Positions 12,983 to 19,131 of a DNA stretch of 48,322 nucleotides are shown in pieces. Under the pieces are notes generated by a model. That model saw only the letters and a list, made by a program, of their open reading frames with translations. It ran no database searches and was not told where the DNA came from. The number at the start of each line of letters is the position of its first letter. Position 1 is the stretch's first letter. Made by a program: the position numbers and the translations under genes. The stretch lies in assembly GCA_903827265.1 (NCBI GenBank), contig CAIKHN010000024.1, positions 69,332 through 117,653 of the forward strand, read 5' to 3'. This stretch comes from Candidatus Uhrbacteria bacterium (GTDB lineage: Bacteria; Patescibacteriota; Patescibacteriia; UBA9934).

Positions 12983-14002
12983 TTAGCGCTTAAGGAAATT
13001 GTCCGCTAATTTACGAGCCTCGTCGACGCCAGTTACCCACAGAACCCGCGAATCCCTTTGAAACCACGTCTCTTGGCGCTTTGCGTAATGGTGGCTGTCG
13101 TATTTTATGCGCAATACCGCATCACGGAGCTGTTCTTTCTTTTGGAAAAAATCGACAATCTGTCGGTAGCCGATTCCCGTCATTCCCGGACAATCATCGC
13201 CATACTCGTCACGAAGCTTACGAACTTCATCGACAAGTCCTTTGCCGATCATTTCATCAACGCGCAGATCGATGTCGGCGTACAGCTGTTCGCGAGGCTT
13301 GGTGACGCCGATCTGAAGCGCATCGTACATCGGTTCACCGAATTCCTGGCGGTCCGCCAATGTTTTTCCTGTTGTTCGAAGAATCTCAAGCGCACGAATG
13401 AGTCGTCGACGGTTCCGATCATCAATTGTTGACGCAGTGTCAGGATCACGTGACGCAATCTCTTCAAGAAGCTCATTGTCCGTCATCAATTCAAGTTCCA
13501 ATCGGAGCGCAGCGTCAGGCGCGGTATTTGCGTAGTTTGGGCGATCGATGATGGCGCGAATATATAAGCCCGTTCCACCAACGAGGATAGGAACATGACC
13601 ACGGTCAAGGATCTCGGCAATTTTCTTGTCGGCATACTCCTGAAACTGCGAAACCGTGAAAACCTCGCTCGGATCGACGAGGTCGATTCCCCAATGAGGA
13701 ATGCCCTGAACCATGTGAGGGCGATCGGCGAAAAGCGCGTTGATTCCCGATTCGGGTTCGAGACGACCCAGCGAGTCGTCTCTACGATCGGATTCGGGCT
13801 TTGCCGTCCCGATATTCATGTGTCTGTACACCGTTCGGCTATCGGCAGCGATAATTTCTCCGCCAACGTGTTTTGCGAGCACAATGCCAATATTCGTTTT
13901 CCCCGAACACGTCGGACCGACAACGGCGATGATTTTTGGAAGATTTCCGTCCATATTTTCCAATCCTATCACCTTTTTTTGAACCAATCTATTCCCCGTC
14001 AT
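12983..14002 (-). CDS. miaA: tRNA dimethylallyltransferase
   Basis: P-loop VVGPTCSGKT, then TAKP, GGTGLY. The start could alternatively be the ATG at 13954. Confidence 0.9.
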   Translation of the reverse strand: MTGNRLVQKKVIGLENMDGNLPKIIAVVGPTCSGKTNIGIVLAKHVGGEIIAADSRTVYRHMNIGTAKPESDRRDDSLGRLEPESGINALFADRPHMVQGIPHWGIDLVDPSEVFTVSQFQEYADKKIAEILDRGHVPILVGGTGLYIRAIIDRPNYANTAPDAALRLELELMTDNELLEEIASRDPDTASTIDDRNRRRLIRALEILRTTGKTLADRQEFGEPMYDALQIGVTKPREQLYADIDLRVDEMIGKGLVDEVRKLRDEYGDDCPGMTGIGYRQIVDFFQKKEQLRDAVLRIKYDSHHYAKRQETWFQRDSRVLWVTGVDEARKLADNFLKR

Positions 14003-14046
14003 CTCCTGAGATCATGGTATTATGCGTCTATATTTTGCCAGCTTTT

Positions 14047-15630
14047 ATGAATATGAAACTCGAAGTGTTCCCTGCGGGAGCAAAGATTCCATCAAGAGAA
14101 GCACTGGAGGAGCGCAGCCATAAAGAAGCGCTTGTCGAAACAGCGACAGAGAATACTGCTCAGCGCGGCATTGAAATTGTCGATCAAAAACTCAAGACCG
14201 AAGAAGCCGGGATTGCGGCGCGTGATGCGAATATTACGAAACGAATTCAGTCGCTCCTCGTCGATACCGCCAAGGCAACGCCGAGCTTTGCGGCGTCGAT
14301 GTTCAACGGATATATTGGAGAAACGTTCAGAAGTCTCACAAACTTTCGCGCAGGAGAAACCGAGCTTGAGCGCGAGGAGCGTCTGCACGCAAAAGCACAG
14401 CAACCGTCATTAAAAGAAAAAATCACGCAATGGAGCGAGAATCGGAAACGCGAGGCGGAACAGACTGCAGAGGACAAACGAAAGCTTGCGGAAGACATGG
14501 AACGCGATCGTCAAGCATTTGGAATATCCCTTGCAAAGGATTTTGCTCGACGACACGGAAAAACATACACACCAGAGCAAGAAGAACGTGTCGGGAAAAA
14601 ACTTCTTGAGCAAAAAGAAATCGCCGAGCTCGCCGAGCTCAAGGCGAATGCAGAGCCTGGAGACGCTGTTGCGGTCTTGAAGGGAACGCTTAAAGGTCTT
14701 CGTGCATTCTCAAAATACTTTACCGTGGAATTTGCAGAATCGAATACCGCGATCGATCGCGCGCTCCGCACAGAAAAAGAACAACGAGAGTTCGAGGAAG
14801 CAGAGGATATTCGCTCAGGAAAAGTTCGCGATGACAACGGAGAAAAAATCCGAGGACTTCCCCGAGAAATGGGAGGCACTGTTCACGCACTTGAAGACGC
14901 CCTTGGCGGAAAAGGTATCGGAAAAATGCTCGCAAACGTCGGCGCGATCGACGTGAATCCATTCAAGAAAGAAACCGATTACTACGCGCAAGGCGCCGAA
15001 GATTTCGTTCCAGAAACACCAGAGGCTTCCCTGCTTCGACAGCTGCTTCCAACTGTGTTCTTTATTAAGGATTCAGTCACTATTCGGAATATCGAAATTC
15101 AAATCGAGGCAGCAGAAAAAGCACAACAGGCAAAACAACGAATTGCGCGCGCTTGGGACACATTCACCGGAACCCTCAATACCGTTCGCGAGAGCGCAAT
15201 GCTCGCGGCTAATCTTCATGAAGATTCCTCTGTTCGTGACTCGCTTCGCTCGGCGCTTCGCGCAAAAGAAGAAGTTCTACACATTCGCCCAGAAGCACGA
15301 AAAGAATCGACGCCCCTCAACGTGCTCACGGAAACATTACGCTCGAAAGGCGAAATACGTCAGCAGCTCAATCTCCGGGGCGCAGGCGGATATGACTTTG
15401 TTGTTCAGAAAGACGCTGACGGAAAGTTTGCAATTGGACTCATGAGTTCAGGAACCACGTCTACTCTCGAAACAGTCATCGGATCCTCTGCCGATGACGC
15501 CGCAGCAATCTTCCTGAATCTTAAAAACGATTTCGCGCGAAGCGGCGAGGCGCTCACACGAAGCGAAGCACTTCGCCGCATCGCGAACGCCGTTAAGGAA
15601 CAACGGCCGCAGGAATCGCTCGCCGCGTAA
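14047..15630 (+). CDS. hypothetical large charged protein (527 aa)
   Basis: Lys/Glu/Arg-rich, predicted helical, no motif recognised. ATG at 14047 follows a divergent AT-rich promoter region. Confidence 0.55.
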   Translation: MNMKLEVFPAGAKIPSREALEERSHKEALVETATENTAQRGIEIVDQKLKTEEAGIAARDANITKRIQSLLVDTAKATPSFAASMFNGYIGETFRSLTNFRAGETELEREERLHAKAQQPSLKEKITQWSENRKREAEQTAEDKRKLAEDMERDRQAFGISLAKDFARRHGKTYTPEQEERVGKKLLEQKEIAELAELKANAEPGDAVAVLKGTLKGLRAFSKYFTVEFAESNTAIDRALRTEKEQREFEEAEDIRSGKVRDDNGEKIRGLPREMGGTVHALEDALGGKGIGKMLANVGAIDVNPFKKETDYYAQGAEDFVPETPEASLLRQLLPTVFFIKDSVTIRNIEIQIEAAEKAQQAKQRIARAWDTFTGTLNTVRESAMLAANLHEDSSVRDSLRSALRAKEEVLHIRPEARKESTPLNVLTETLRSKGEIRQQLNLRGAGGYDFVVQKDADGKFAIGLMSSGTTSTLETVIGSSADDAAAIFLNLKNDFARSGEALTRSEALRRIANAVKEQRPQESLAA

Positions 15631-16038: not shown

Positions 16039-17781
16039 TTACACTGGCAATTTTCCTGCCTCTACTGCGCGGCTCACGATCTCGCTCCGTGGAATAATGA
16101 GCGATTCGTCGCTTCCGAAGACTTTCACTTGAATGTCTCCCCCGTCGCGCTCCTTTGCACCAACCACAATAGTCCAGGGCACTTTATTCATTGCGGCGTC
16201 ACGAATCTTCTTTCCCACTTTTTCCGGCGCGTCGTCCAGTGTTACGCGGACGCCGGCAGCTTCGAGATTCATCTTCATCGCCCTTGCGGTGTCAATAAAC
16301 TCATCGGCCACCGTTGCAACGCGAACCTGCTCTGGAGCAAGCCACATTGGGAAAGCACCAGCAAAATGCTCAATCATCACGCCGATGAATCGCTCGAGCG
16401 ATCCGAGAATCGCGCGGTGAATCATCACCGGGCGTTGCTTCACGTTTTCAGAATCTGTGTATTCAAGCTCGAATCGCTCTGGAAGATTAAAGTCGAGCTG
16501 AATTGTTGCGAGCTGCCATTCACGACCGATCGCATCAGTAGCGATAAAGTCGATTTTTGGCCCGTAGAACGCCGCCTCACCAACACCGAGGAAGTACTCC
16601 TGGTTCATATCGGCGAGCAATTCTTTCAGCGTTCCCACAGCCTTCTCCCACACTTCTGCGCCGCCAAGATACGCTTCTGGCTTTGCAGGATCGTTCACCG
16701 ACAAGCGAGCCTTGAGCGGCATCTGGAATGCCTCGTAGAATTTCGTGATGATATTCGCGATTGCACGAGCCTCGTCCTTCACCTGATCAAGCCGGCAGAA
16801 CACGTGCGCGTCGTCTTGAGTGATCGACCGAACACGCGACAGCCCCTGAAGTTGTCCGGTATTCTCGTCGCGATACACGGTGGTCACTTCGCTATAACGA
16901 AGCGGCAAATCGCGATAGCTTCGGCCACGTGACGCAAAAATTTGCGTGTGATGCGGACAGTTCATCGGCTTTAACACAAATGCGTCGTCCGTCTTCTTGC
17001 TCGACACATGGAAAATGTCGTCCGCAAATTTATCCCAGTGTCCACTCGTTTTATACAAGTCGCTCTTTGCCATGTGCGGAATGGTCACTTTGGTGTATCC
17101 GTACGGCTTCATAAGTGCCCAAACGAACGCGACAAGCTGTTCACGAAGCACAGTGCCGCGAGGCGTGAACAATGGAAGGCCTGGTCCGACCAGTGGGGAA
17201 AACGCGAAGAGATCGAGCTCAACGCCGAGCTTTCGGTGATCGCGCTTCTTTGCTTCCTCGAGCATCGCAAGATGCGCATCGCGCTCTGCTTTTGTTGGAA
17301 ACGCAATACCGTAAATACGCGTCAGCTGATCGTTATGTTCATCGCCGCGCCAATATGCTCCAGCGAGTTTCGTGAGCGAAAAACATTCTGGATCGAGTGC
17401 GGCAATACCGTCAGCATGACCGCCGCGACACAGATCGGAATAATTTCCTGACGTGTAAAGGGTCAGCGTCTGCCCATCGCCAGCAAATTCATCGATAAGT
17501 TCAACCTTGTATTTGTTATCTGCGAACAGCGATCGAGCTTCGTCTGTCGTGACTTCTTTTCGATGGAATGCGATCCAGTCCGGCATCAGCTCACGCATCT
17601 TTGCTTCAATCTTTGGAAGATCTTCTTCTGAGATTGGCGTAGAAAATGCGAAGTCGTAATAGAACCCGTCATCGATAGCTGGGCCAATCGTGCGTTTTGC
17701 ATCCGGATAGAGTTCGAGCACTGCCGCTGCGAGCAAGTGCGCGAGTGAGTGTCGGAGATGTTGTAAATCTTCAGAGTTCAT
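16039..17781 (-). CDS. thrS: threonine--tRNA ligase (no N-terminal TGS domain)
   Basis: HSLAHLL (editing/SAD HxxxH), class II motifs (FRDE-like YRDENTGQLQGLSRVR, GVGEAAFYGPK) and a C-terminal anticodon-binding domain. The ATG at 17781 is preferred because the upstream 108 nt of the ORF overlap the T-box terminator. Confidence 0.93.
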   Translation of the reverse strand: MNSEDLQHLRHSLAHLLAAAVLELYPDAKRTIGPAIDDGFYYDFAFSTPISEEDLPKIEAKMRELMPDWIAFHRKEVTTDEARSLFADNKYKVELIDEFAGDGQTLTLYTSGNYSDLCRGGHADGIAALDPECFSLTKLAGAYWRGDEHNDQLTRIYGIAFPTKAERDAHLAMLEEAKKRDHRKLGVELDLFAFSPLVGPGLPLFTPRGTVLREQLVAFVWALMKPYGYTKVTIPHMAKSDLYKTSGHWDKFADDIFHVSSKKTDDAFVLKPMNCPHHTQIFASRGRSYRDLPLRYSEVTTVYRDENTGQLQGLSRVRSITQDDAHVFCRLDQVKDEARAIANIITKFYEAFQMPLKARLSVNDPAKPEAYLGGAEVWEKAVGTLKELLADMNQEYFLGVGEAAFYGPKIDFIATDAIGREWQLATIQLDFNLPERFELEYTDSENVKQRPVMIHRAILGSLERFIGVMIEHFAGAFPMWLAPEQVRVATVADEFIDTARAMKMNLEAAGVRVTLDDAPEKVGKKIRDAAMNKVPWTIVVGAKERDGGDIQVKVFGSDESLIIPRSEIVSRAVEAGKLPV

Positions 17782-17789
17782 AGCAGAGG

Positions 17790-17940
17790 CTATCGTGAAT
17801 AAAAAATACCCGATCCGAGCACAATGCTCACGATCGGGACCGAGCTCAGCTCGGTGGTTCCACCCGAATTCCCTTCTTCCGAAAGGCACTCACTGAATTT
17901 GTATTCGACTCGCGGGTTGGTAGTCCGGTCGTTGCCGATG
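17790..17940 (-). promoter_or_regulatory. T-box riboswitch leader (Thr specifier ACC) controlling thrS
   Basis: - Specifier: the minus strand has a specifier hairpin loop ACUACCAAC at 17924-17916.
- T-box core: GGGUGGAACC.
- Antiterminator: UCGGG/UGGAACC bulge/ACCGAGC-UGA-GCUCGGU/CCCGA at 17867-17834.
- Terminator: a mutually exclusive terminator CCCGAUCGUGAGC-AUUGU-GCUCGGAUCGGG plus UAUUUUUU at 17838-17801. Confidence 0.85.
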
Positions 17941-17945
17941 AAAAC

Positions 17946-17974
17946 ACTATAGAACGAACGCAAAACACGCGCAA
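17946..17974 (-). promoter_or_regulatory. sigma70-like promoter TTGCGC-17-TATAGT driving the thrS leader
   Basis: On the minus strand, TTGCGC at 17974-17969, 17-nt spacer, TATAGT at 17951-17946. Confidence 0.6.
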
Positions 17975-17979
17975 GTGGA

Positions 17980-19131
17980 CTATTCCGTAATAACAATCTT
18001 GATATGATCCTTCAGCGTTGGCACACGTTCAAGCCAGAATGGAGTAAAGCTTACTGACGCGTCCTTCACCGCTTCCGATGCGCGAAGCAACGTCAGCACC
18101 TCATTCGGCGCACGACCAACAAAACGATCCTTATTCAACACCGCGGAGTCTTCTGAGAGAATCGCCTTTCCTTCAAGATACACGCCAAGTGTTGCCGTTC
18201 CCTTTTTTACATCCGCACTCTTCACCGACATCTGCACGGCGTCCGTAGAAACATTCTCTGCAGCGTATCCGTCAGGAACGCGGCTGTACAGCTGCGACAG
18301 TGCGTATTTCTTTACCGAATTCTGATCGTAATAGACCGCCGTCACGTCCATGGAAAGCGTAACGGTAAAACTTCCAACATCAGCACCAACTGCAGCACTC
18401 GCGCCTTGAGAAGTTACGGTTGACGTATATGATTCGCCAGTGAAGACGTTTCGATCAACGCCAGCCGACAGCGCTGCTTTTGCCTTTTCAAGTTGTGACG
18501 TTGAAACAGACGACACCGCGTCGTCGATATCTTTCTGCGTCAAAACACGCTTGTATGACACTCCACCCTTCATCGACTCTACACTCACTGCGTAAATGGT
18601 TTTCTGCATAGACTCTGGCAGTCCTGGAATAGTGAATTGCGTTGGACCAATTTCACCGGAGAGCCCAGCTTTGTCTGCATGAGCGATCACGTCGACCTGA
18701 CCTTTCGACGGAACGTTCACTGCGGAATCGATTCTGAAGAGCACACCATCCTTCGAAAGCAGCCGTGTTGTTGCAACGAGCGCTTGCGATGATCCGGATT
18801 CGTTAATAATCGTTACCGTTCCTCCAGCCTTTTCCTCAACCGCCGTTCCGCCGTCTGTTGGGAGCGTAATCACTTCCTGAGTGTTGAACGACTGCTTTGA
18901 AACGATGCCGCTCAATTCACCATCATTCGCCGGGTTCGCTACCGCTTGCACTTCCGTATCGACCGAAATCACTCGAGGATTCGCAATAATAGTGATCGTT
19001 GCTCGAGAAATAGATAAATACAGCACCGCGAGCAACAGAAAAAACGTCATGAACACAAACGCCACCGCAATCCGCTGATACACCTTCAGCGAACGCGATA
19101 GTGGCTGTGCTCCGCGAGTTTCACGTGCCAT
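17980..19131 (-). CDS. hypothetical N-terminally membrane-anchored extracytoplasmic protein
   Basis: A single N-terminal TM (IAVAFVFMTFFLLLAVLYLSI) followed by a beta-rich Ser/Thr/Val-rich domain. No motif recognised. Confidence 0.6.
   Translation of the reverse strand: MARETRGAQPLSRSLKVYQRIAVAFVFMTFFLLLAVLYLSISRATITIIANPRVISVDTEVQAVANPANDGELSGIVSKQSFNTQEVITLPTDGGTAVEEKAGGTVTIINESGSSQALVATTRLLSKDGVLFRIDSAVNVPSKGQVDVIAHADKAGLSGEIGPTQFTIPGLPESMQKTIYAVSVESMKGGVSYKRVLTQKDIDDAVSSVSTSQLEKAKAALSAGVDRNVFTGESYTSTVTSQGASAAVGADVGSFTVTLSMDVTAVYYDQNSVKKYALSQLYSRVPDGYAAENVSTDAVQMSVKSADVKKGTATLGVYLEGKAILSEDSAVLNKDRFVGRAPNEVLTLLRASEAVKDASVSFTPFWLERVPTLKDHIKIVITE

Follow-up and report, generated by a model that had tools for sequence, protein, structure and literature searches.

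A stripped-down, probably threonine-specific T-box riboswitch with an ultrashort Stem I in front of thrS in a Candidatus Uhrbacteria genome

What kind of element occupies the 198-nucleotide (nt) gap in front of the threonine--tRNA ligase gene thrS in a stretch of 48,322 nt from the Candidatus Uhrbacteria contig CAIKHN010000024.1 (the whole stretch analyzed, here referred to as “the window”), and how much of a T-box riboswitch is left in it? The gap lies on the minus strand and runs from the stop codon TAG of the upstream open reading frame (ORF; 17980–17982) to the thrS ATG (17781). An inspection of the letters alone, here called the sequence-only reading, had proposed, for a host resembling the Candidate Phyla Radiation (CPR), a compact threonine (Thr) T-box whose Stem I is ultrashort, which shows ACC in its apical loop and which carries a terminator. 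Three lines of evidence support this proposal: covariation, agreement of the codon with the gene, and complementarity to tRNA. The leader is a stripped-down T-box, about half the usual size, and we give a probability of roughly 0.8 to the view that it is, in identity and mechanism, a Thr-specific, transcription-attenuating T-box riboswitch of minimal architecture.

The downstream gene is indeed thrS: its product scores 637 bits against TIGR00418 (cut-off 384), and its Pfam matches are the class II core, the anticodon-binding domain and the SAD domain. A base-by-base recheck confirmed the 198-nt gap and every sequence element that the sequence-only reading had listed. The leader elements extend over 17798–17974 in the order promoter, kink-turn (K-turn), short stem with loop, linker, GAGUG-Stem III-AA, antiterminator, terminator and U-tract, as follows.

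17969–17974, minus strand: -35-like hexamer TTGCGC, from sequence; weak, 3/6 to consensus.
17952–17968, minus strand: promoter spacer of 17 nt, from sequence.
17946–17951, minus strand: -10 hexamer TATAGT, from sequence and position in orthologues.
17906–17937, minus strand: ultrashort Stem I of 32 nt (CGGC/GUCG, AAC, GA/GA, CCGGA/CCCGC, loop CUACCAA), from covariation.
17934–17937 with 17906–17909, minus strand: C-stem CGGC/GUCG, 4 base pairs (bp), from covariation.
17917–17923, minus strand: 7-nt apical loop CUACCAA, from sequence.
17919–17921, minus strand: specifier ACC (Thr), then A17918 and A17917; kept in thrS leaders, GGC in glyS leaders.
17892–17905, minus strand: A-rich single-stranded linker AAUACAAAUUCAGU, 14 nt; lengths compared across the clade.
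17887–17891, minus strand: purine string GAGUG (RRRxG), from the RF00230 alignment.
17871–17886, minus strand: Stem III CCUUUCGGAAGAAGGG, that is CCUUUC-GGAA-GAAGGG, from the RF00230 alignment and covariation.
17868–17891, minus strand: 5' part of the discriminator (GAGUG, Stem III, AA(U)), from the RF00230 alignment, covariation and the flanks in relatives.
17834–17867, minus strand: antiterminator (helix A1, bulge, helix A2), from the RF00230 alignment and covariation.
17863–17867 with 17834–17838, minus strand: helix A1 UCGGG/CCCGA, from sequence and alignment.
17856–17862, minus strand: T-box bulge UGGAACC, 7 nt, from sequence and alignment.
17839–17855, minus strand: helix A2 ACCGAGC-UGA-GCUCGGU, from sequence and alignment.
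17798–17838, minus strand: intrinsic terminator (hairpin and U-tract), from a terminator scan (part) and folding.
17809–17838, minus strand: terminator hairpin of 30 nt, CCCGAUCGUGAGC-AUUGU-GCUCGGAUCGGG; its first five bases are the 3' strand of helix A1.
17798–17808, minus strand: U-tract UAUUUUUUAUU, from sequence.
16039–17781, minus strand: thrS, threonine--tRNA ligase, the regulated gene, 580 amino acids (aa), from Pfam and TIGR00418.

Besides the K-turn and the complementarity to tRNA treated below, four features of the T-box family are present here. First, the antiterminator UCGGG / UGGAACC / A2 / CCCGA is found at 17834–17867 as the sequence-only reading had drawn it, and its helices covary in orthologues. 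Second, the small stem of that reading is Stem III; it stands between purines (GAGUG ... AA), a motif defined in PMC7583486 as RRRxG ... AA and also found in the leaders of the relatives that were parsed. Third, the specifier has C as its third base and is followed by a purine (ACC-A before thrS). Fourth, an intrinsic terminator shares a strand with the antiterminator. Two other features are missing, namely a long Stem I with an AG bulge and a distal loop platform for the tRNA elbow, and a Stem II with an S-turn together with the Stem IIA/B pseudoknot; 14 unpaired nt are all that lies between the K-turn and RRRxG. Counted from the K-turn through helix A1, the element comes to 104 nt, against 219 positions in the Rfam model.

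The Rfam model RF00230, which the sequence-only reading had pointed to, does match the leader, but only below threshold (24–28.6 bits against a gathering score of 93). At a permissive threshold, a search of 351 nt aligned model positions 158–216 (Stem III and antiterminator) with 17835–17892 at 24 bits (E = 0.0016), and a search of the whole window gave a full-length match at 17832–18000 with 28.6 bits (E = 0.014). At the gathering score there is no match anywhere in the window, and 0/18 sister CPR loci pass, so Rfam-based annotation misses the whole class. Taken alone, the sub-threshold match is suggestive only, and the decisive evidence is comparative.

We therefore relied on related leaders, designated by L numbers, which were gathered from three independent sources. 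First, similarity of the threonyl-tRNA synthetase (ThrRS) protein gave L001, L002, L009 and L226–L228. Second, a DNA pattern of linker and T-box that put no constraint on the specifier or on the fourth base of the bulge gave L088, L091, L100 and L201. The genome scan with this pattern did not return L001, though L001 matches it; the metagenome scan was almost all noise, and among the matches listed only L139 (same contig as L091) and L201 were useful. Third, a pattern fixing ACCAA-N5-GA and AANTYGGGTGGAACC gave 55 loci, about 45 of them from CPR, including Uhr-, Moran-, Wolfe-, Doudna- and Nealsonbacteria, Paceibacterota and others. This third set was used only for helices and distribution; as to conserved letters, only the independently found loci count.

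As a result, five helices with 25 pairs (C-stem, specifier stem, Stem III, helix A1 and helix A2) could be scored in two sets. In alignment A1, which comprises 14 close leaders aligned with MAFFT and not fitted to any model, 96.5% of cells are paired, compared with 78.1% in shuffles, and both sides change in 17/25 pairs; when the 3' partners were slid by 1–3 columns as controls, at most 52% were paired. A covariance model built from this alignment (R1) matched exactly once per locus in 54/70 loci. The resulting 54-leader alignment has 93.6% of cells paired versus 66.7% in shuffles, with compensatory changes in 21/25 pairs and slid controls of at most 55%. Being fitted to R1, this larger alignment somewhat favors the structure, but the margin is large and the model-free alignment of 14 leaders agrees. 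Helix A1 is paired in 98.5% of cells, all 7 pairs of helix A2 show compensatory changes, and all five pairs of Stem III covary. The antiterminator, Stem III and Stem I helices hence show, in both sets, the orthologue covariation that the sequence-only reading had named as a check. The window holds a single element of this kind: R1 and Rfam each give one match and none further, and the motif GGTGGNACC occurs at chance frequency (19 versus 18.7 expected), so no second T-box was found in the window. Two weak Rfam matches in the window, SpF41 and mir-486, were dismissed because both cover only the terminator hairpin.

The comparison also corrects the register of the 5' hairpin. In the window it reads CGGC-AAC-GA-CCGGA-[CUACCAA]-CCCGC-GA-GUCG, and about 45 CPR leaders are built in the same way. 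They have, in order, the first strand of a 4-bp helix, a bulge of 3 nt, GA, one side of the stem (five positions), an apical loop of 7 or 9 nt that closes with ACCAA, the other side of the stem (again five positions), GA, and the second strand of the 4-bp helix. At the level of sequence, this order of elements marks a K-turn, the motif on which Stem I of T-boxes stands, and the kink itself would follow from the pattern. The C-stem CGGC/GUCG is paired in 100% of cells among the 14 leaders, with compensatory changes at 3/4 pairs; in the 54-leader set, 95% of cells are paired and all four pairs show compensatory changes. Its forms in relatives include CGGC/GCUG, UCGC/GCGA, ACAC/GUGU, AAGC/GCUU, GAGU/ACUC, CCAU/GUGG and others. 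The outer helix of the sequence-only reading, CGAC/GUCG, was rejected, as it is paired in 66% of cells only and two of its pairs are broken in 8–9 of the 14 orthologues. That reading had also seen no K-turn, which is wrong, for the 3-nt bulge AAC and the invariant GA...GA on CGGC/GUCG form one. Its statement that there is no long Stem I, with neither AG bulge nor distal platform, holds: Stem I has 32 nt and ends five positions above the K-turn, and the promoter ends 8 nt before it. In one Uhrbacteria thrS leader (L009:2100–2300, plus strand), Stem I is longer and closer to the classical form (AGAGA ... short hairpin ... GGC-ACC-AAAG), the specifier lies in an internal loop, and the middle region is extended; T-boxes of several architectures thus occur side by side in Uhrbacteria.

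Which tRNA would such a hairpin read? Positions 3–5 of the 7-nt loop are ACC, and the next two are AA. Every thrS leader obtained by a search that did not specify ACC has this triplet (L001, L002, L009, L226–L228, L088, L091 and L100). The sequence-only reading had seen two Thr codons in the loop, ACU and ACC, and only the latter can be retained: ACC is kept in thrS leaders, while the A of ACU is the last base of the stem, and relatives have GCU and ACC. The purine claimed 3' of the specifier is in place, since A follows ACC here, and GGC in the glyS leaders is likewise followed by A.

These glyS leaders provide the most direct comparison. L201:7946–8050 (minus strand), found through linker and T-box only, has the same K-turn and discriminator, a 13-nt linker AUACAAAUUGAGA and the loop GAUGGCAC, and the gene behind it is a glycine--tRNA ligase (NF003211, 665 bits versus a cut-off of 312). 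A second case, L365:1268–1392 (plus strand), precedes a glyS whose glycyl-tRNA synthetase is 79% identical to that of L201, and shows the same arrangement with different stem sequences (CAAC-GCC-GA-UCCGA-[UGUGGCAG]-UCGGG-GA-GUUG); it scores 53.6 bits against R1 (E = 2.5e-12). Both have an 8-nt apical loop, NNU-GGC-AN, and a linker of 13–14 nt. Counted from the 3' side of the loop, the triplet set off by two bases thus reads ACC before thrS and GGC before glyS, at the same distance in both, and so it behaves as a specifier. The glyS copies are rare and may have been derived from the thrS element by a change of specifier; the five other glyS relatives of six (L361–L364 and L366) have no leader, glyS abutting the preceding gene. 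No other amino-acid class of the element was found in the CPR DNA examined.

The same evidence bears on an operator of the kind known from E. coli thrS, in which ThrRS would bind a tRNA-like hairpin in its own leader. The leader does precede thrS, and the 5' hairpin is sized like an anticodon arm (5-position stem, 7-nt loop). However, the loop carries the codon ACC and not a Thr anticodon (GGU, UGU or CGU), that is, it complements the anticodon arm and does not mimic it; the same hairpin stands with GGC before glyS; and the remainder of the leader has a discriminator and a terminator of textbook form. We regard such an operator as exceedingly improbable.

A T-box reading Thr would further need a suitable tRNA. 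ACC is complementary to the tRNA-Thr anticodon GGU, and the UGGA of the bulge can pair with a tRNA 3' end that has U at the discriminator position 73. To sample tRNAs, we used rpmG to fetch the tRNA cluster from 80 genomes, mostly CPR, with the following discriminator bases.

tRNA-Thr(GGU): U73 in 55/56; the exception has a poor acceptor-stem parse and is probably a misparse.
tRNA-Thr(UGU): U73 in 34/34.
tRNA-Trp: G73 in 72/76.
tRNA-Tyr: A73 in 41/41.
tRNA-Gly: U73 in the single gene seen.

Overall, 89/90 tRNA-Thr genes, nearly all from CPR, have U73. Since tRNA-Thr and tRNA-Gly have U73 where Trp has G73 and Tyr has A73, UGGA fits Thr, and also Gly, specifically. The complementarity between UGGA and tRNA-Thr(GGU) that the sequence-only reading had foreseen is thus borne out in CPR genes, two of them on contigs that also carry the T-box: LBXA01000007.1 (L246/L281) and LSNL01000003.1 (L254/L286). 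The Moranbacteria contig of L246, which has this class of T-box, also carries tRNA-Thr(UGU), tRNA-Tyr, tRNA-Thr(GGU), rpmG and tRNA-Trp. This cluster recurs, whole or in part, across many CPR lineages (L281–L343), and most tRNA genes in these rpmG loci do not encode the 3' CCA. Classical thrS T-boxes from Firmicutes and Chloroflexi among the fetched loci (about 30) have UGGA as well.

The output of the leader appears to be transcriptional. The terminator hairpin reuses CCCGA, the 3' strand of helix A1, and is followed by the U-tract; this G+C-rich hairpin with its U-tract ends 17 nt before the ATG, and a terminator scan calls part of it. The computed free energies are -31.2 kcal/mol for helix A2 plus terminator and -16.8 kcal/mol for the antiterminator, so the default state is termination (OFF), as in T-boxes. 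Folding of 42 orthologues gave a corresponding hairpin with a U-tract behind it in most, though it is weak in a few; in leaders of the Moranbacteria type the terminator hairpin also takes in the 3' strand of helix A2. No helix between an anti-Shine-Dalgarno and a Shine-Dalgarno sequence was seen in the window leader. Folding and U-tract thus agree with the sequence-only reading, which had coupled this T-box to a terminator sharing CCCGA instead of to Shine-Dalgarno sequestration.

On the promoter the evidence is divided. The sequence TTGCGC-17-TATAGT is there as the sequence-only reading had it, and its position agrees with 27/42 orthologues, in which the best sigma-70-like match ends 7–8 nt before the K-turn, often as TTGACA-16/17-TATCAT or TAGAAT, with TTGACA, TTGACG or TTGACC as -35 at the same place. 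A promoter scan of the window, however, called no site, because the -35 matches only 3/6. The transcript probably starts at about 17938–17940, 1–3 nt before the C-stem of the K-turn, judging from these positions. With the promoter fixed 7–8 nt before the K-turn in 27/42 leaders, there is no room for a longer Stem I.

Put together, these elements suggest the following mechanism. Transcription would begin 1–3 nt before the K-turn. This turn would bear the 5-position stem, whose 7-nt apical loop would offer ACC to the GGU anticodon of tRNA-Thr, and the 14-nt unstructured linker would lead on to the discriminator (RRRxG, Stem III, AA, and A1 / UGGAACC / A2). If the tRNA is uncharged, its 3' end U73-C-C-A would pair with UGGA and stabilize helix A1, whose 5 bp include the strand shared with the terminator, and transcription would read through into thrS. 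Otherwise the more stable terminator would form, and transcription would halt about 20 nt before the ATG. We infer from this architecture that the leader binds tRNA, discriminates charged from uncharged tRNA, terminates or reads through in vivo accordingly, and needs no further RNA domain or protein.

That last point is the most demanding one, as a comparison with known systems indicates. Transcriptional T-boxes are described as requiring, in general, a long Stem I with an elbow-binding platform and as needing the elbow contact for fast capture, and truncated Stem I RNAs hardly bind tRNA without Stem II; only glycine T-boxes dispense with Stem II, which is credited to strong GGC-GCC pairing (PMC7583486, PMC10651847). 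The closest known relatives in shape are the ultrashort-Stem-I translational ileS T-boxes of Actinobacteria (Mycobacterium, Nocardia farcinica; TBDB class II), which we describe from reviews and later papers (PMC7583486, PMC10651847). Like the window element, they have a K-turn with a short helix, an apical-loop specifier and no elbow-binding platform, as well as a discriminator composed of RRRxG, Stem III, AA and A1 / UGGN bulge / A2. They differ in three respects. First, they contain a Stem II with S-turn and a IIA/B pseudoknot, reported to be essential for tRNA binding, where the window has a 14-nt linker. Second, they sequester the Shine-Dalgarno sequence, whereas the window has a terminator hairpin with U-tract. 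Third, they precede ileS with AUC in Actinobacteria, and the window element precedes thrS with ACC in CPR. The glyQS-type T-boxes of Bacilli share the other half of the design, namely a flexible single-stranded linker after the K-turn with neither Stem II nor IIA/B, an intrinsic terminator and a G+C-rich codon-anticodon duplex (PMC7583486). Unlike the window element, they possess a long Stem I with a distal platform, a double T-loop, that stacks against the elbow of the tRNA and is said to be essential for transcriptional T-boxes, and their specifier is GGC in an internal loop with S-turn, not ACC in a 7-nt hairpin loop. Classical thrS T-boxes (Firmicutes, Chloroflexi; RF00230) have thrS, the UGGA bulge and the antiterminator/terminator logic in common with the window, but extend over about 200–300 nt with long Stem I, Stem II and IIA/B pseudoknot, compared with 104 nt here. 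The window element is thus an ultrashort Stem I of actinobacterial style, joined to a bare linker of glyQS style and a transcription terminator.

Nearest of all are the thrS T-boxes of sister CPR lineages (Moran-, Wolfe-, Nealson- and Doudnabacteria, other Uhrbacteria and Paceibacterota), which have the same K-turn, apical ACC, discriminator, UGGA, terminator and gene, are matched by R1, and fall below the RF00230 gathering score. Most of them differ in having a 9-nt loop (NYUN-ACC-AA) and, in a linker of 24–31 nt, a IIA/B-type pseudoknot. In fact, 16/18 of these longer linkers fold as an H-type pseudoknot of Stem IIA/B topology (IIA of 3–4 bp, IIB of 4–6 bp, lineage-specific sequences), with a summed score of 135 versus 41 ± 13 in shuffles, and none of the 18 leaders has a Stem II. 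This covarying pseudoknot follows directly on the K-turn (L233, L238, L243, L246, L254, L260, L263–L265, L275 and others). The clade of the window, 16 leaders all with 7-nt loops, has linkers of 13–16 nt and lacks it. Judging from these alignments, the CPR lineage is one of ultrashort Stem I without Stem II, and the window clade has lost the pseudoknot too. The compact, ultrashort-Stem-I character named by the sequence-only reading therefore stands, but that reading did not remark the missing Stem II and IIA/B pseudoknot, which is the more surprising feature. A pairing between the linker and the flank of helix A1 was dropped by eye as unconvincing, being AU-rich and not consistently complementary.

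Because the tRNA would be held during transcription by no more than 3 bp between codon and anticodon and 4 bp at the acceptor end, the leader might be a working T-box that does not act on its own. A helper (an L7Ae-family K-turn-binding protein, ThrRS or another CPR factor), or an A-rich linker replacing the minor-groove reading of the Stem II S-turn, would then complete it. The poor binding of published truncated Stem I RNAs (PMC7583486, PMC10651847) favors this, as do the K-turn, which is the best-conserved non-pairing motif and for which T-box K-turn-binding proteins are discussed (PMC7583486), and the linker, which is held at 13–16 nt with a recurring ACAA(A)UU. However, no candidate protein was identified, the upstream gene having no Pfam match and the locus giving no hint of a cofactor, and the linker varies in sequence within the clade (e.g. 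AGAGGCAACAGAGAA in L236). Moreover, glyQS T-boxes work without Stem II if the duplex is G+C-rich, and ACC/GGU has two G-C pairs (PMC7583486); by analogy, these pairs may aid function without Stem II. We consider dependence on a helper unlikely, yet it is the most serious alternative to a T-box that suffices by itself.

Several points weigh against our interpretation. The RF00230 score is far below the gathering score (28.6 versus 93), and the distal platform of Stem I is lacking. The window contains no tRNA genes, so that the tRNA-Thr of its own genome was not recovered. Its -35 is weak (3/6), and only helix A1, with 5 bp, is mutually exclusive with the terminator. About 45 leaders were fetched with ACCAA, GA and GGGTGGAACC fixed, which makes the conservation of those letters circular. 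Finally, the pair that closes helix A2 beside the bulge (17839/17855; columns 212 and 270 of alignment A2), to which steric sensing of the aminoacyl group is ascribed, varies freely in the CPR class. It is A-U in the window, and the class has AU 10, CG 9, GC 9, GU 8 and UA 6, which is free covariation, against GU 22, GC 7 and AU 2 in classical thrS T-boxes, where G.U alone makes up 22/31 and G.U or A-U 24/31.

The relaxed closing pair, the loss of three domains that usually contact tRNA or organise the RNA, and the patchy distribution would also suit a decayed T-box, whose discriminator and terminator persist as a constitutive or otherwise controlled attenuator (e.g. by nucleoside triphosphate levels or polymerase speed) while the hairpin is blind to tRNA. 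As to distribution, 6/11 thrS loci sampled by protein similarity have the element and 5/11 (L003, L004, L005, L007 and L010) do not. Decay, however, would not explain the compensatory changes in the C-stem of the K-turn and in the specifier stem together with the fixed linker length, nor would it explain why ACC and UGGA stay invariant among leaders whose ThrRS share as little as about 65% identity; and GGC in place of ACC before glyS is what selection for tRNA recognition predicts. Thus a mere remnant seems very improbable to us, and a T-box that reads tRNA-Thr remains the preferred interpretation.

As to the host, among species-representative genomes the nearest ThrRS (96% identity) is from a Candidatus Uhrbacteria metagenome-assembled genome (MAG; L001), and further near relatives are Uhrbacteria or “Patescibacteria group” MAGs; the NCBI lineage places Uhrbacteria within the Parcubacteria and Patescibacteria groups, that is, in CPR. 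Some MAGs automatically labelled otherwise, e.g. “uncultured Gammaproteobacteria”, are putative mislabelled CPR, as ThrRS similarity and gene order suggest. The window ThrRS (580 aa) begins at the editing (SAD-containing) domain, without the TGS domain that most bacterial ThrRS have at the N-terminus. Immediately upstream of the leader lies an ORF of 383 aa (17980–19131, minus strand) that has no Pfam match; its position between dnaE and thrS is kept in the relatives L227 and L228. Another nearby ORF of 564 aa (13936–15630, plus strand) likewise has no Pfam match. Two relatives (L001:2390–2500 and L009:2330–2500) have about 110–190 nt inserted after the T-box terminator and before the start codon of thrS; judged by eye, the ends of these insertions are imperfect inverted repeats, resembling miniature inverted-repeat transposable elements, and the window has neither the insertion nor any copy that could be found. 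In the near relative L226 (2579–2652, minus strand), ARAGORN calls a tRNA-like gene with an undetermined two-base “anticodon”, adjoining pheT.

Class I T-boxes in TBDB were gathered via RF00230 and Rfam, and its class II model was searched only in Actinobacteria (PMC7778990). Within the limited scope of the literature searched, we found no relevant report of a T-box in CPR or of a minimal or Stem II-less T-box, and no description of this element, although a first description is not a certainty. We put forward tentatively, at slightly less than even odds, that this is the smallest natural T-box architecture (104 nt), sensing tRNA co-transcriptionally through 3-bp and 4-bp contacts only, with no elbow platform, Stem II or pseudoknot, and that it represents the most reduced end of a CPR-wide T-box lineage undetected by RF00230 and by the TBDB class I and II searches.

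If true, this would contradict two working rules, namely that transcriptional T-boxes depend on a long Stem I, and those with an ultrashort Stem I on Stem II. In the current account, tRNA is captured either by the elbow platform of Stem I (transcriptional T-boxes) or by the S-turn of Stem II together with the pseudoknot (ultrashort translational ones). A conserved, covarying, terminator-coupled T-box with neither would make it directly testable how little RNA can read the identity and charging of a tRNA, T-boxes being the model system for RNA-RNA recognition of tRNA. It would also offer a compact scaffold for engineered tRNA sensors. For annotation, Rfam-based searches miss the class (0/18 loci tested). 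For the CPR/Patescibacteria, with their tiny genomes and few known regulators, these leader sequences point to tRNA-sensing attenuation as a probable control of thrS and, occasionally, of glyS.

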